A DNA stretch of 63,025 nt, counting the filler, from Rhabdomonas costata (lineage: Eukaryota), in assembly GCA_019059605.1 (NCBI GenBank). It is 26 parts of 26 records of this genome, joined end to end, with 100 filler letters (N's around TTAATTAATTAA, not from the genome) between each part and the next. Parts side by side here need not be neighbours in the genome. Positions count along the whole stretch, not along the records: positions 24,290 to 26,618 come from JAHMHO010004003.1; 25 more parts are not named here. One strand, given 5' to 3'. The notes beneath the pieces are model-generated. The model made no database searches. It had not been told where the DNA came from and saw only the letters and a list, made by a program, of their open reading frames with translations. Numbering within the stretch: position 1 is the stretch's first letter; every line of letters begins with the position of its first letter. This document shows, piece after piece, positions 23,101 through 43,711 of the stretch. A program made the position numbers and the translations under genes.

Positions 23101-24510
23101 CACTCTTTCCAGGCTTCTCGATGCCTCCGTCACAGTCCGGCATCGGACGGAGCGCGAGGCGCTGATTGCGGTAGACTGCCCTGCTCGATGAACCGTCCTT
23201 CGCAGATCATACGTGGTCCCAACTGAGGTTGTTGGCCAGCGGTTACAATTCCTGTTCAAAGGGAGCTGCACATGCGGATGGGCTCCGGAGTGGATGGGGA
23301 TGTCCTCTCTGTTTTTTTGACTTTTCCTCGGCATCGCTTGTTCTTGGACTTGCTCTGACAACGTGACAACGCGTTTTCCCTTTGGGATACAGTAATGAAT
23401 CAATGTCCCTGAGAATGCGGGGGCAGATATCCTCTCTTTGCGGTATCGAAACCGTCATCGCCGCAGCCGCTCAAACCAAGGAGCCCGTTTGCCTGAAAGC
23501 ATCAGGTATTAGAGGTTTGGTTCTATGGTATTGGACGGAGCGAGTGTCCTTGTCCTCAGAATTGCATCCAATTTGTACGGACGTCTGACCAGCAGAATTT
23601 GTTAAGAAATGGCTTGGTTTTTCGAGCACAAGGTCAAATATAGGACAAAATAATTTATTTATATTTTTCTCTTCTCGGTCGCCAGAACAGCGCTTTCCCT
23701 CCAAAGAAGTCGGTGGCATCCCCACCGTGCTTATCAGAGTATTACTTGCAGTTTGCTTGCACTTCACATTTATCACGCTCTCGTTTCCCACGAGTACGCG
23801 ATTGGGGTCTTTGCTGTGCAAAGCTTCACTTTCTCGGAGTTCATTTTTTGCTTCTTCTCGGTGTGCTTTCGAAGCTGTGTGAGAGAATGTCCCGCAACAT
23901 TCATGCTTCACCCTTGGGCTTTCGTCACCGCACGGTTGACGTGCAGGCGCCGGTGTGCGAAAGTGGGTGGTGGCTTGGATGTTCGTGCATGTATTGTGTC
24001 CCCGCAGCCTGCAACCTGCTGTTTTGATACCGCCATGATAAAAAAATCAAAGTATTCTATGTCCAATAGCTGTACTGTTAGGGTTCAGACTCACAGCACG
24101 TATTCCACTGCACACAGCGTGGCACCGTCCAAGAAAATGCTCACACATCCACAGCGCTATTATGAAGAAAGTGTTCGCGGCTTCTGGCANNNNNNNNNNN
24201 NNNNNNNNNNNNNNNNNNNNNNNNNNNNNNNNNTTAATTAATTAANNNNNNNNNNNNNNNNNNNNNNNNNNNNNNNNNNNNNNNNNNNNGATAAAGGTCT
24301 GGAATCCGACGTCTGACGTCGGATGTTTTTGTGTTGAGTTTGATTTGGGTATACTTTGGTTTTCGTGGTGTTTTTGGGTTGTGATAAGAAAGCTGTTTAC
24401 CTATTTTACAGGTTGCCGCTAAAAGCCCAGCGGAGCGGGGCTAAAGCGAGGTAGAGGCGAGTCAGGGCTAAAAAGGTCCCACTTAGTGCAAGCTAAGTCG
24501 GGATACAGGC

Positions 24511-25790
24511 TGTCAGAAGCGGAGCCCAGAGCCACGACCACCCGCAAGAGGTAGGAGGCACGTAAGAGGCTCGGTGGATAGACGGCGTGTGACGGGTGGT
24601 AGCAGAGGATTGCTGAATATCCAGAGCGCAGTGTGCAAGAAAACTACCACCTTGACAGGTGGTAGCAGAGGATTGCTAAAGATCCAGAGCGCAGTGTGCA
24701 AGAAAACTACCACCTTGACAGGTGGTAGCAGAGGATTGCTAAAGATCCAGAGCGCAGTGTGCAAGAAAACTACCAACTTGACAGGTGGTAGCAGTCGGTT
24801 GTTTTCCAGATGGGGAAGATCCTACAGCATCAGAGGAGCCCGGCTAAATACCCGCCCAGAGCAGGCGCGCAGAGCCCCAAGGTGGAGAGTAAACGCCAGC
24901 TAGCGAGGAGATAAAGCCAGAGGCGTCGCGACAGAGGTCGCGTGGTAGCAGAGCAAGCGAGATATAGCAGGGGAGGGAGACAGGCTAAAGTTATCCACCT
25001 CCGGCGGTGGTGCTAAGCCTTCAAAAGAGCTTGTAGCGCCCCCCAGCTAAATCTCTGTGTGAGTGTGTGCGTCCCCTGAACCGGGTGGTTTTCCACCAGG
25101 TCAGCGCAAAACTTCTCTTTTTTTGATCGAGATATATTGGACTTGTGATTCCTTTTCGGTTAAAGATGTCAGGCGAAACACCTCCACCCCCGCCAGCTAA
25201 ACCAGCAGCTGCTCAGCCATTGGAGGCCACGTTTTTGGCACAGATGGTTTCTTTCTTCCAGCTGATTGACGCAAGAGTTACTGCAGAGGGTGACTGGAGG
25301 ATTGCCGAGCAGTTTCTTTGCACCAGCACCAGCAGCGGCAGCCGGACAGACAGACCCAATTGGAGGCGTGTTGCGGAAGCTTTAAGAAAAAGACCCGGAG
25401 TTCACGAAATACGACGGGAACGCAGCCAATTTCTTGCCTTGGTTGGTTAGCGTCGAAGAGCTAAAAGATGTCCGGAGGTTGCCAGGTCAAGATTCCTCTG
25501 TCCACCCTCTCCTCCAAACCGTTCTCTTGATTCCTTCGTTTTCTAGCGCGTTTCTCCCTGAAGATTTCCGGGTAGTAAGAATCAGGCCCCGGGGATGCGC
25601 ACAAGGGAAGGCAGCGGCGAAGAGGGGGAGCGTCAGGGAGGACCCCGTTCGGCAGCGCATGGGCATGGGAGCGGGGCGCGTAGTGTCCCGATACCATTTG
25701 GTCAGGTGTGCCCCTCTCTGTGGGAAAGGGCACACAGAAACAGTAATAGACGGTGCGCGCAGACGCGTGGAGAGGAAAACGGCTTTACAA
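24511..25790 (+). mobile_element. 5' part of a degenerate LTR retrotransposon (LTR end, PBS array, gag-like relic)
   Basis: TGTCA at 24511 and TGAC(A/G) immediately before each PBS. ATG at 25166 opens a gag-like frame (WRRVAEALRKRPG) with a stop and frameshift, followed by a degenerate zinc-knuckle-like CAPLCGKGHTETV. Confidence 0.55.
24590..24795 (+). repeat. 63-bp tandem repeat (about 3.2 copies), each unit carrying a hairpin and a tRNA-iMet PBS-like motif
   Basis: TGGTAGCAG(AGGAT) starts at 24597, 24660, 24723 and 24786. Unit junctions read ctaccacct-tgac-aggtggtag. Confidence 0.9.
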
Positions 25791-26718
25791 CCGGTGGTGG
25801 CCGACAAGCAGACCGACGACTAAGGCGCCGGTCGGGTTAAGGGGTTGGAAACGTGGGGGGTGGCGGGGTAATGACGGAAAAGCGGCGCCCATGACAGGAA
25901 AATGACAGGAAAACTGCGTGGTCAGGAAAAAACTCTCAAATACGCACACCTAATCACCTAATCGTGCATAACTCGACCTGGAAAGGGAAAAAGAAGAAGA
26001 AAACATGAAAAATGCAGCGGCGGAAAAGGACTTCTGTGAACCCAAAATTTCGACGTTGCGTACGTCCGGATGTGGTCCGGCATACGCTCCAACTAGCGGC
26101 CACAGGAACACATGGACAAATGCGCCCTCAACAAGCACGGCCGCCATCACAGCCCTCACCATCACGTGCAATTCGCAGGAAACCGCCCCATGTCACCCAG
26201 AAGCGCCACATACGGATTTCCGACGACAGCCAACCACAGCAAAGCTCAACAGAGAGCTAGGAAAAAGACAAGCGAAACCTTCAGAAACTAGCGCACAACA
26301 TTCAGGAATCATAACCTAGGGCAAAATTTGGACCTCTTCAAGCGTTAGGTTGACGATCATGGAACATACACGCAGAGAGACACCCAGCTTTGATGCCGCT
26401 CTCTGTTAAGCGAAACATCTCTATGATCTGCAGCCTCACCAAAGGAGCCACAACGAAGGAATGGCCATTTTCATGTACCTCGATGCCATTTACATCAGAG
26501 CGAGTAAATGGAAGCAGATGAAAATCTACAAACCAACAAAAGCAAAAGAAAATCTACAAACCACCAAATCACCCACCCCGACCACGCGCAAACCGCCGCC
26601 TTTCTCTTCACCCCAACANNNNNNNNNNNNNNNNNNNNNNNNNNNNNNNNNNNNNNNNNNNNTTAATTAATTAANNNNNNNNNNNNNNNNNNNNNNNNNN
26701 NNNNNNNNNNNNNNNNNN

Positions 26719-31307: not shown

Positions 31308-31573
31308 TAAAAGCGCGCACATCCAAAAACAATCTGGAAACAACATGCGGTAGGCCGCAACAAGCGTTTGAAGACGGAACTGGGCAGTCGCGCCACACCA
31401 CCATCGGCTGAGCGCGATAAATAATCTCTATGTTTCCACCTCAAGCTGAGCTCTTCTAATGTTGGGGGGTTCANNNNNNNNNNNNNNNNNNNNNNNNNNN
31501 NNNNNNNNNNNNNNNNNTTAATTAATTAANNNNNNNNNNNNNNNNNNNNNNNNNNNNNNNNNNNNNNNNNNNN

Positions 31574-33902
31574 GTTGTTGTGTGTTGGAGCTACGTGTCA
31601 GGATCTTGGGGTTTACGTCTTCGTGTCATGCGTAGTACTTGGGCTTATGGTGTGTTTATGCGCTTCTTGTGTGGTTGTAGGGCTGATGTTGTGTGTTGGA
31701 GCTACGTGTCAGGATCTTGGGGTTTACGTCTTCGTGTTTTCGGGTTCTTGGGGTTCGTGTTGTTGGGTTCTGGGGTGGTTTGTGTCTTTCTGTGTCCATG
31801 GCTGTATCCTGGTGTCATGTTGTTGGTGTCTTGGCGTAGGGTTCAGGGCTTCTTGCGTTTCTGTGGGTCATGGTGGTTGGGGTGTTGGGTTGAGAGGCTA
31901 GGGTGTATGGTGTAAGGTAACCACTACTACCAGCTTTGAAAGAATGCCTACGTAACCTGAGGCCTTCAACCCCTAGATGCATTCCTACCTGCGGTGCCTT
32001 GAGTGATGATGCCTTCTACTACGCATGCGCCACTGCGTGACTGCATGCTTCGTGCCTTCTATGCTGATGCGTTACTCCGATACCAGATGCATCCTCGACT
32101 TGGGAGCACTCTAGGGGCATTTCTACCGCAGGTGCCTTGATTGATGATGCCTACTACGCATGCGCCACTCCGTGACTGCATGCTTCGTGCCTTTATGCTG
32201 ATTCTATGCTAAGGGTAAATGCCGATACCTTGACATAGGTGTGGTGTACGAGGTACACACGAGGTACGAGCATCGACCAGCAAGATATTCCACTCTGTCG
32301 GGATTCTCACGTCCTCTCGAATCCCTCCCACTCTCTTTAACCCCGCCATAAGGCGGTACGTGGAGCTCCGACCGGGCGTAGCCACAGGAGAATACCAAGA
32401 GGGTATCGGAGGGCATGTCAAGGGTACCGAGGCATGCCCGTAGAAGCATAAACCCCGCTCAAGCACCTTAGACCCAGCGCATAGCGGTGGAGTGACGAAC
32501 CACGCATTTAGGAGGAACGAACGCAGTGAGTGACGACCGACATCAAGAACTCATCTTTTTAGCCCCTTGGGGTTGGTGAGGGCATGGAGGCACCTTACGG
32601 TGGTGGAATGCACGAACCATCATTCATAGGGAGGAACGAACGCAGTGAGTGACGACCGGCAAAGAACACAAATTACCCTTAGCCCCTTGAACACGAAGGC
32701 ATGGTCGGTACGGGCATGCCGTAGTAGAGTGTCTGCGAGTCGAGGAAGGGAATGCATCGGAGTAATGCATCAGGTCATCTCAGCATAGAAGGTACGGAGG
32801 GATGTCGAGGCATCGAGGCATCCCGGAGTCAGGAGGGCATCAGCGATAGAGGGTTCTTTACTACTCCCTACTCATAGACAACGCTGGTAGTAGTGGTTAC
32901 CTTTACGCACTAACGCACCCTTTCCTCAACATCCCGACACCCCAACCACCATGACCCTCAGAAACGCAAGAAGCCCTGAACCCTAAGACACAGCATGACA
33001 CCAACAAGCACTGTAGAAGCGTAGAACATGAACCCATTGACACACAGACCTTGAGACGTAAACCCGTGACGCCCTCCACACCCAAGACCTCCTCACCTCA
33101 AGACACGCTAACACACCATGACACCAACATACACTGTAGAAGCAATGACACAGAAGGCATGAACCCATGAACCCTGACACAGACCCTCCACGCAAAACAC
33201 CCTGACCCTGAAACCCACGCTCCAAGAAACACCAAGACACCTTACACGCATCCAACACACTGTAGCCATGAACACAGAACGCTGAGACCTTGAGACGTAA
33301 ACCCTGAGCCCCAAAAACACCACGCCACGAACCCCAGAAGCAACACAGAATGCCAACACACTACAGCCATTGAGACAGAGACACGAAGACGCATTGACCC
33401 TGAGACCGTAAAACCATGAAACCATGACACCGTAACATCCACACACTCTCCACACAAACAAGGCATGACTCAGCTTGACATCGCACAGAACCCCAGACTA
33501 CGCTCCAACTCCAAAGCATGAACCTAGAACCGTAAACCCAAGGCACCAACATCCAACACACTACAAGCAATGACACAGAGCATGACACAGAAGCACCAAC
33601 GCATAACCCTACGAACCCTCACACCAACCATGCCTCACACCAACCACCATCCGACACACAGACCCAAGACGTAGCACCGTAACACGCACTGACACTGACA
33701 CCGTAGCACCATCAACCCAACGCATAACACCACGAACCCTGAGACCACGACACGCTGAACCCCACGGACCTAACAGCAACGACGCGAACACCACACTCCT
33801 GACAACCATGACCCAACGCAGCATGAACCCCACGGACCTACAAGCAACGACACCACGACCCACAGCACCTGAGACCAACGCAACGATCACCACACCACAC
33901 CC
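31574..33902. repeat. Large non-coding foldback structure: GT-rich left arm, modular core, CA-rich right arm
   Basis: Perfect 21-bp inverted repeat at 31914-31934 / 32883-32903, with about 120 bp further inverted homology outward. The left arm has a 111-bp-period direct repeat and the core has duplicated modules. Confidence 0.85.
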
Positions 33903-41160: not shown

Positions 41161-41316
41161 AACACAACCAACCACACCCAACACNNNNNNNNNNNNNNNN
41201 NNNNNNNNNNNNNNNNNNNNNNNNNNNNTTAATTAATTAANNNNNNNNNNNNNNNNNNNNNNNNNNNNNNNNNNNNNNNNNNNNTTGTTGTTCTAGATTT
41301 TTTTCTTCGTGTTTTT

Positions 41317-43611
41317 GTGCTTTTTGTTGTCCCCGTAATGCCATGCTCGACCTCCGTCATTTTGGTCTTCTGCCTCTCCGCAGTGGTCACGTTGTGCGCC
41401 TCCAGCTTGATTGCATGGAAAATTGAAGCCTATCGATCAGAGAATGCTGACCTGACTTCCTCCTTGGCAGGGCAGAACAAGGTCTTGTACATATCGAATG
41501 CCGCTGTTCAGCTTCGCAGAATGCAGGATTTCCTCAGACGGGAGGTTTCGCGGATGCGGCTATCTTTGAATGAGACGCGGCGGCTTGTCTTCGCACTTGT
41601 GTCAGGGGACCCGAGCATTCGCACCTCCTCTGGGGCACTTGCGGTAGTAAATGCCACGTTGTTTGGGGAATGGGCGCACCGGGTGACCTTCCCTGAGGAG
41701 CAGTATGGGTTTGCAGTGAACTTTCTGTTCCCCCCTGACACTAGGGCTGTGACTTCGGTTCAGTCCCTCCAGACATACGCAGATCCGCTCATCGATGGAG
41801 GCCTGCAACCCATTCACGCATACACCAACCCAGCAACCTCGGTTACCTCTGCGTACCAGATTAACCTGGTGCCCGCTGCAAATGTTCAAGGTTCGGCCAC
41901 AGGAGATGTCCTGGTTCCCGTGCTGGACACCTCTGTCGTGCAATACAACTTTTCCTACTTCTCGTCTGCAGTTCTGGGTTTAGGGTACCCATCCAGGTTC
42001 GACATTCTTCCTTGGACGTCGAGCGATGGCAATCCGTGGTGGTTCGTGCAGCAGAGCAGCTGGGTGCAGATCTGGGGTGTCAATATCATCGCACAATCGT
42101 ACGCCTCTACGGTGTACTGGGGCCAAAATTTGGCATCCCTCATCACGTCGCCGAACACGTACTTCCTCCTATTTGGCGCAAGCCTTACCCCACTGGCGAC
42201 GTCATACCCTCCTGCTCTCACTCAACTCCGCTCGTGCATTGAGAGCCAGCTGCCTCTGTCGAATACTCTGTCATGCATCACGATTCCGCTGAACAGCACG
42301 GAGAGCCCACCGCTGTTCCAATTCATCGACAGCACAATAATCTCTCGGATTGGGGACCCAAGATACTTCACACCAAGCCCGAATGACCCCGGAGTAACCT
42401 TCACCTCTGCATCTTTTGGAGGTCAGGCCATTGACTTTGTCTGGGTCGACCCCATTCTGCTGGAAGGTCCAGCAAACGAAAAGTTTGCCTTGCTGTGGTT
42501 TCAGTTTGACTCTGGAGTCCTGACAAGCACATCCGCGACGAGCACCAGTGCTGGCACGGTTTCGGCGCTGGTCGCCTTCATTATCATTGTTGCAGTGTTC
42601 TCGACTGTGGGAGTCGGTCTGCTCATCCAGAAGTCGTTTCTTCATCCCTTAAGCGATATTACAGCCGACATGACTGCGGTAGCACACCTCGAGATGGACC
42701 TTGTGCGGGTCACCCACGCTGAGTCTCACGTCGAGTTCTCCGAGATGCGGAAGTTGCGTGGGGCCTTCCGAATGATGGCGCAGTCCATCCAGTGGTTTCT
42801 GCTGTACCTTCCGAGAGACGTAGTGAAGGATATTCTCGCAGCAGAGAGAACCTCGACATCTGTTCGCGAGCTTTCGGAGAAAAAGCTCGTCGTAATCTTC
42901 TGCGACATTCGAGGATTCACCTCCGCCACTTCCACCCTTCGCGACCACGTGGACACCTTCGTGGAACTTCTTCAGCTTTACTTCGAGCAGTGCTCCAACG
43001 CTTTGACCGCAGAGGGCTGCACGATCGACAAGTTCATCGGTGATGCCATCATGGGATTTTGGGGCGCCCCTCTCCCCTGCTCAGCGAAGAACACCTGCGG
43101 CTGCTTCGGAGCACTTGCGCTGCAGGCGGTTGTGCGGATGCTTTTGGATGAGTTTATGGAACACGGGTGGGCTCTTTCTGTGCGGGTGGGCCTGCACCAC
43201 GGGATGGCCATGGTTGGCAGCGTGGGCTCCAAACGCCGACTGAACTATACTGCGCTTGGTGAGACTGTGAACATCGCATCCCGGCTGGAGGGGCTTTGTA
43301 ACGTCAACGGGGCGGCGATTTCGGTGTCCGCCGACGTGGTGGCCGGGGTGCTGGAGGAGTTGGGCAGCAGCGACGTGTATTCTGGCGGCGCTGAAGTTGG
43401 CGACTTGATTTTCCGGCGAACGGGCTTGTATATCCTGAAGGGCCTCACTGAGCCTATAACGGTGTACGAGCTCGTGGGTACCATTTCCACGAAGCACGTT
43501 GGGGACGCATGGAGAGCCGTCGCCCTGCCCAAAACTGGGACGAGCAGGCACTCCTCGTTGGTCTCCGGGATTTCGCAAATGCTGGAGGTCACGCGGGTGT
43601 CCCCAACCAAC
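41317..43611 (+). CDS. Receptor-type class III adenylate cyclase (TM - extracellular domain - TM - HAMP-like - cyclase), 3' partial, no intron in view
   Basis: About 765 uninterrupted codons with two hydrophobic helices and the motifs FCDIRGFT, IDKFIGDAIMGFWGAP, RVGLHHG and NYTALGETVNIASRLEG. Confidence 0.95.
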
Positions 43612-43711
43612 NNNNNNNNNNNNNNNNNNNNNNNNNNNNNNNNNNNNNNNNNNNNTTAATTAATTAANNNNNNNNNNNNNNNNNNNNNNNNNNNNNNNNN
43701 NNNNNNNNNNN

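Follow-up and report, generated by a model that had tools for sequence, protein, structure and literature searches.

Our analysis revealed that the leader of a Ty3/gypsy-type LTR retrotransposon family in Rhabdomonas costata carries, behind an open primer-binding site at the end of the LTR, a tandem series of further copies of that site, and that this multi-site leader is real and lineage-wide. Nearly every type of extra copy is disarmed for productive priming, being folded, mismatched near the tRNA 3′ end or devoid of the CA end of the LTR. It is customary to credit an LTR element with a single primer site. The disarming of spare sites across a group of related elements suggests that they are retained for a job other than starting DNA synthesis, and we put at about one half the probability that they are selected, non-priming leader modules serving packaging or tRNA loading.

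Results

The array was found in a window of 63,025 nt, the whole stretch of DNA analysed, in which 26 unrelated contigs, each about 2.3 kb long, are strung together by spacers of the form N-TTAATTAATTAA-N, with no true neighbours across a spacer. The context of the array is therefore limited to positions 24291–26619 (contig G000:C4003), in which no Rfam match was found. The motif TGGTAGCAG starts at 24597, 24660, 24723, 24786 and 24943, and every detail of the layout described in an earlier, sequence-only reading of this DNA is present. Tandem Repeats Finder reported a period of 63 with 3.3 copies and 97% matches at 24590–24794. On the plus strand, the 3′ part of the 5′ LTR (24291–24594), with limits taken from sister copies and an end set by the junctions at which 40 of 54 matches meet unrelated DNA, is followed by site 1 (24597–24610), the working primer-binding site, which stands 2 nt past the LTR end, within the 0–3 nt expected, and has no upstream arm. 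Cassette 2 (24644–24673, plus strand) comprises an arm, a TGAC loop, a copy of the LTR end and spacer, and a copy of the primer site masked in a 9-bp stem (24644–24665). Cassette 3 (24707–24736, plus strand; stem at 24707–24728) has the same sequence, and cassette 4 (24770–24794, plus strand) has a stem with one mismatch (24770–24791) and a 9-nt site. The 9-bp stems with a TGAC loop over copies 2–4 are thus as first described, and so is the different hairpin in front of site 5, which ends at 24942. Site 5 (24926–24953, plus strand) consists of this small hairpin and then an open 11-nt site without a CA integration end; 19 distinct copies of its type were found. The predicted costs of opening the 11-nt sites 1 to 5 are, in order, 4.9, 14.4, 14.8, 7.9 and 1.3 kcal/mol, so that site 5, the cheapest, is the most open site despite the hairpin just upstream.

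Downstream, the 5′ part of gag (25166–25491, plus strand) carries a frameshift and a stop in addition to a deletion near 25266, and ends abruptly at 25491; the DNA past this break (25492–26619) is unrelated, lies outside the element and matched no other locus compared. About 440 nt are absent from the window LTR between 24477 and 24478 by comparison with locus L172, and its terminal dinucleotide (24594) differs from that of sister copies. The window copy is dead: its LTR is deleted in part and altered at its end, and its gag is broken and truncated. Contigs X1–X3 stem from one sample, which may be the source, and do not count as independent, and X4 comprises two 151-nt pieces at a depth of 2; no piece spans the array, and the exact three-fold repeat of this copy rests on the assembly contig. 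Elsewhere in the window, we observed an ORF resembling membrane adenylate/guanylate cyclases (41233–43659, plus strand; PF00211; 99% identity to EukProt protein P0002) and, at 31500–33900, several imperfect direct repeats of 100–135 nt with strong AT and GC skew.

The array belongs to the 5′ leader of a Ty3/gypsy-type LTR retrotransposon, here in a broken copy. Its earlier assignment to a retroelement leader is borne out by the LTR end, primer site and Gag found here and by the protease and reverse transcriptase (RT) of sister copies, and the downstream ORF, described as gag-like in the same reading, is gag: Ty3_capsid (PF19259) was matched in the sister frame L086 with 30.7 bits against a cut-off of 29.1. 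A CCHC motif in Gag gave a weak match (E 0.035), and a word-index search with the partial Gag gave no match. Locus L388, 84% identical to the family gag tail, carries RVP_2 and then RVT_1, with the protease directly before the RT, and the best solved relative of this RT is the Ty3 RT 4ol8 (E 9e-33). The element is multi-copy, with at least 56 matches from the 40 scored of 312 candidates. In sister copies, the family LTR is about 1.6 kb long, begins with TGTAAC and finishes with GTGACA. The LTR-end pattern was matched 54 times, 14 times running into the spacer and primer site and 40 times into unrelated DNA; one repeated junction makes up six of the 40. The LTR start is preceded, at about half of 29 loci, by a shared internal sequence with a purine-run end, the polypurine tract. 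The contigs of the assembly are mostly shorter than 2 kb. Integrase gave 88 matches in G000, none on one contig with this family, and no chromodomain or Dam frame was found in the 200–500 nt before the 3′ LTR at eight loci. The copies at L014, L018, L020 and L504 are folded back or rearranged and may have arisen as chimeras during amplification. Two other classifications were weighed. A TRIM tandem array was rejected on the ground that the commonest units measure about 40–115 nt against an LTR of about 1.6 kb and that gag lies downstream, and the tandem mini-LTR/PBS units once suggested for the array are not supported, each unit repeating only about 6 nt of that LTR.

The primer site matches what we take to be the 3′ end of initiator tRNA-Met. 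From that sequence and its plant-type counterpart (PMC2829016), we infer that initiator tRNA-Met is the primer. Eleven families whose LTR ends are unlike have the same primer site, which speaks for a common tRNA rather than for self-priming of the Tf1/sushi type, in which the site pairs with the 5′ end of the RNA itself. A host initiator tRNA gene was not found by an Rfam search in which 63 of 2725 candidates were scored, and five sequence patterns returned nothing or chance matches; since the assembly is fragmentary, the missing gene is no evidence of absence. Two host tRNA-Met genes were found, neither of which matches the primer site. Host tRNA genes are clustered. At L026 (1060–1145), we observed a tRNA with the stop-reading anticodon TTA, a near copy of the tRNA-Leu(TAA) of L025 with the same tRNA-Phe neighbour, which is probably a decayed duplicate.

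Multi-site leaders are widespread in this genome. The 12-mer TGGTAGCAGAGG occurs 215 times in G000, compared with 15 times for the reversed control. When families were sorted by LTR end and loci were counted only where enough sequence was present, six related families had 2–7 sites in 52 of 56 loci (the remaining four being single-site) and five other families had a single site in 18 of 19 loci, with the proviso that many loci were gathered by motif search, which biases the sample toward multi-site copies, and that site and arm counts represent related copies rather than independent events. The family members are thus not all single-site, and the neutral slippage in one dead copy that the sequence-only reading had allowed for is rejected, given that 52 of 56 loci in six families share the trait. 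Variation in copy number, a check proposed in the same reading, was found, with 1 to 7 units among close relatives; contig C63120 is 100% identical to the window copy over 288 nt, yet has two units fewer. The Gag pieces of multi-site families have diverged to 29–82% identity to family A Gag, indicating that the trait is old. In a weak, unrooted Gag tree of 19 rows, from which 8 of 27 matches (<70 residues) were excluded, 15 of the 16 multi-site rows fell together at 86/94, the stray row covering a different part of Gag, and the clustering was not significant (equalled in 56 of 500 label shuffles). A tandem palindromic repeat built on the word CACTTCGTGACA was also seen at L432 (G000:C45311), where the flanks are unrelated to the element leaders.

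Masking is one of the ways in which the extra copies are disarmed. Of 154 inner sites, 112 have an upstream arm, compared with 3 of 72 first sites. Pairing between the spacer and the two letters that follow the arm core was seen in 62 of 87 cases, against an expectation of 24, in three arm:spacer combinations (CG:CG, CC:GG and GG:CC), and this pairing, with which a nine-cassette alignment agrees, demonstrates the compensatory stem changes whose presence had been put forward as a check. In that alignment of hand-picked cassettes, five core pairs are kept in 95.6% of cells, two pairs are changed on both sides, and the covariation score was reached by none of 500 shuffles. Had the arms originated as inverted copies, they would have been paired from the start, without selection. 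The cost of opening has a median of 5.6 kcal/mol at first sites; among inner sites the median is 8.0 where an arm is present and 5.0 where it is not, and in site-5 types it is 2.8. The true sites of single-site families, with a median of 7.3 kcal/mol, are as closed as inner sites overall (7.1 kcal/mol), so that masking is strong only in some types. Fifteen downstream cassette types with at least three copies each could be compared: four are perfect but masked, eight have fixed mismatches in positions 1–6, two have no CA end and one is a partial exception. The fixed mismatches of downstream types fall in positions 1–6 in 10 of 12 cases (p 0.04), and none is in positions 7–9.

Priming from an inner cassette would leave LTRs ending at the CA of that cassette. 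A first search for such inner ends gave 99 matches (control 75), of which 49 continue into a site; of the 50 that do not, 25 were examined, of which 23 are themselves unrelated DNA and two are rearranged leaders. Two further searches gave 124 matches (controls 47). In one of them 56 of 73 continue into a site, as judged by eye, and among the non-site matches of both, all of which were examined, the element-derived ones (L404, L449 and L457) are mutated or deleted leaders. No inner end adjoining host DNA was present among the checked matches, a test that is blind to site 5 because this site has no CA. In the matches checked, the LTR always ends at the first site and no LTR was found to end at an inner one, which takes away the support for the structurally gated priming sites of the sequence-only reading.

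Leaders of similar design were also found outside this genome. A metagenome scan for two tandem sites returned at least 115 stretches, among which simple repeats and plant-type tandem elements were frequent. Among 52 metagenome loci with CA just before the first site, five have a second site costing at least 11 kcal/mol to open, three of these strongly closed loci being inspected. Loci L355, L274 and L341, which have plant-type sites, combine the LTR-like end GGGCGTGACA with an open first site and a second site that a long stem covers, with opening costs for the first versus the second site of 5.3 versus 16.2, 1.9 versus 13.8 and 7.0 versus 11.7 kcal/mol, respectively, and their arm matches the T that they have at site position 6. 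L279 and L243 have comparable arms, and their second site is not more closed. No Gag domain was confirmed in L355, L274 or L341, and the family Gag had no tblastn match in the 115 metagenome loci listed and no likeness to the L279 protein P0148; the likeness to those elements is therefore one of leader design. A 25-nt word common to L355 and the G000 cassettes was considered as proof of common descent or transfer and rejected, as it is mostly dictated by the LTR end, the site and the pairing. Other arrangements were seen in the same scan. P0148 is an ORF with a zinc-knuckle-like motif and a protease and with no capsid match, lying behind a multi-site leader, and its element is possibly non-autonomous. 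In the irregular repeat at L255, TGGTAGCAGAG stands behind a hairpin at least five times, and no element was seen in the vicinity. At L249, L292, L328 and L350, short LTR elements form plant-type tandem arrays that hold several primer sites, some of which are doubled at 68–78 nt.

Discussion

In this group of families, the leader retains a single open and working primer site where the LTR ends and, behind it, one to six copies of the junction formed by LTR end, spacer and primer site. We propose that units come and go when template switching or strand transfer occurs out of register on the shared stretch of about 20 nt. The copies may persist as repeated hairpins that bind Gag/nucleocapsid through an exposed CAGAG or, alternatively, as extra tRNA-loading or dimer sites, and their disarming would keep them from mis-priming. 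More tentatively, and short of an even chance, an open site with disarmed copies for packaging or tRNA loading may constitute an undescribed leader module that is selected and recurs in Ty3/gypsy-type elements of distant hosts (this protist, and others whose initiator tRNA is of plant type), the arm being re-tuned to each tRNA.

The rival that survives best is that the copies are a tolerated by-product: misregistered template switches would duplicate the junction, selection would only disarm the duplicates, and these would have no positive role. The range of one to seven copies among close relatives, the decay of older cassette types and the frequency of unmasked tandem primer sites in plant-type metagenome loci are all consistent with it. 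However, the copies are kept in six families, down to about 40% Gag identity, while other families stay single, positions 7–9 are spared from fixed mismatches, and shared homology should favour the loss of units, and we regard a by-product as the less likely reading.

The non-priming modules that we favour would act as RNA. If the repeats acted instead on DNA, as protein-binding sites downstream of the promoter, or on translation, by tuning scanning toward gag, their location directly behind the LTR and the single ATG of the window leader would be accounted for; the covariation of arm and spacer nevertheless points to single-strand folding, not to a fixed DNA motif, which makes this explanation improbable. 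A role as decoys for 3′ tRNA fragments, suggested in the sequence-only reading, is very improbable too. Such fragments target primer sites in mammals (PMC7472051, in its accessible part) and site 5 is open, but masked or mismatched sites should make poor decoys, more sites on the same RNA should add silencing, and neither ‘decoy’ nor ‘sponge’ occurs in the accessible text of that review. Least likely of all is that an opened inner hairpin starts reverse transcription and yields a longer LTR: a perfect site, spacer and CA end are kept in four cassette types, but unrelated DNA follows 40 of the 54 first-site LTR ends and none of the inner ends checked.

Comparison with known systems, as described in the accessible parts of the papers cited, gives partial parallels for the proposed non-priming modules. 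By analogy, the system resembles a mirror image, at the 5′ end, of the situation in Sireviruses. These carry multiple polypurine tracts beside the LTR across the lineage, and the role of the extra tracts is unexplained, with selection suspected (PMC2829016). In both cases a priming signal adjoining the LTR is multiplied and only the terminal copy has a working context. The Sirevirus signal, however, primes the plus strand and lies at the 3′ end in Ty1/copia elements, whereas that described here is the primer site at the 5′ end of a Ty3/gypsy-type element; the extra Sirevirus tracts are without the attachment site, whereas many extra sites here retain the attachment end; and the Sirevirus inverted repeat flanks the working copy, whereas the hairpin here covers the extra ones (PMC2829016). 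MAL-type HIV-1 likewise has part of its PBS duplicated just downstream of the real site, with an altered leader structure, although this is a single 23-nt insertion in some isolates, and no array, repeated LTR end or masking arm is described in the part of PMC3185550 available to us. Ty1, Ty3 and Drosophila gypsy also have more than one tRNA-binding site per genome, of which one primes, and in Ty3 the tRNA can bridge dimers; their second site, often located at the 3′ end, binds another part of the tRNA (PMC5371799, PMC1635307), whereas all copies here match the same tRNA 3′ end and stand in tandem in the leader. The primer site of MMTV has been shown by experiment to bind Gag and to be required for packaging (PMC8096270), and it is thus a precedent for the non-priming use of primer-site sequence proposed here, although that is a single site in a retrovirus with experimental support, whereas the role of the multiplied site is proposed by analogy. 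Tandem arrays of TRIM and other non-autonomous elements also repeat LTR/primer-site junctions in a row (PMC13570524), but they repeat whole LTRs, whereas each unit here repeats about 6 nt of a 1.6-kb LTR in the leader of a gag-pol element. Primer sites are not treated in the accessible text of the Dam-LTR preprint. Masked tandem primer-site cassettes were not found described in the literature within reach of our search, outside which lay supplements (e.g., the element tables of PMC6317226 and PMC3605345) and most subscription papers.

In summary, a lineage that multiplies its primer site and then shuts the extra copies in three ways represents a natural experiment on the non-priming roles of the primer site. 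For the open question of the packaging signal of LTR retrotransposons, the leader offers a short RNA that can be tested. In addition, tools that locate the end of an LTR from its primer site can be misled by multi-site leaders.
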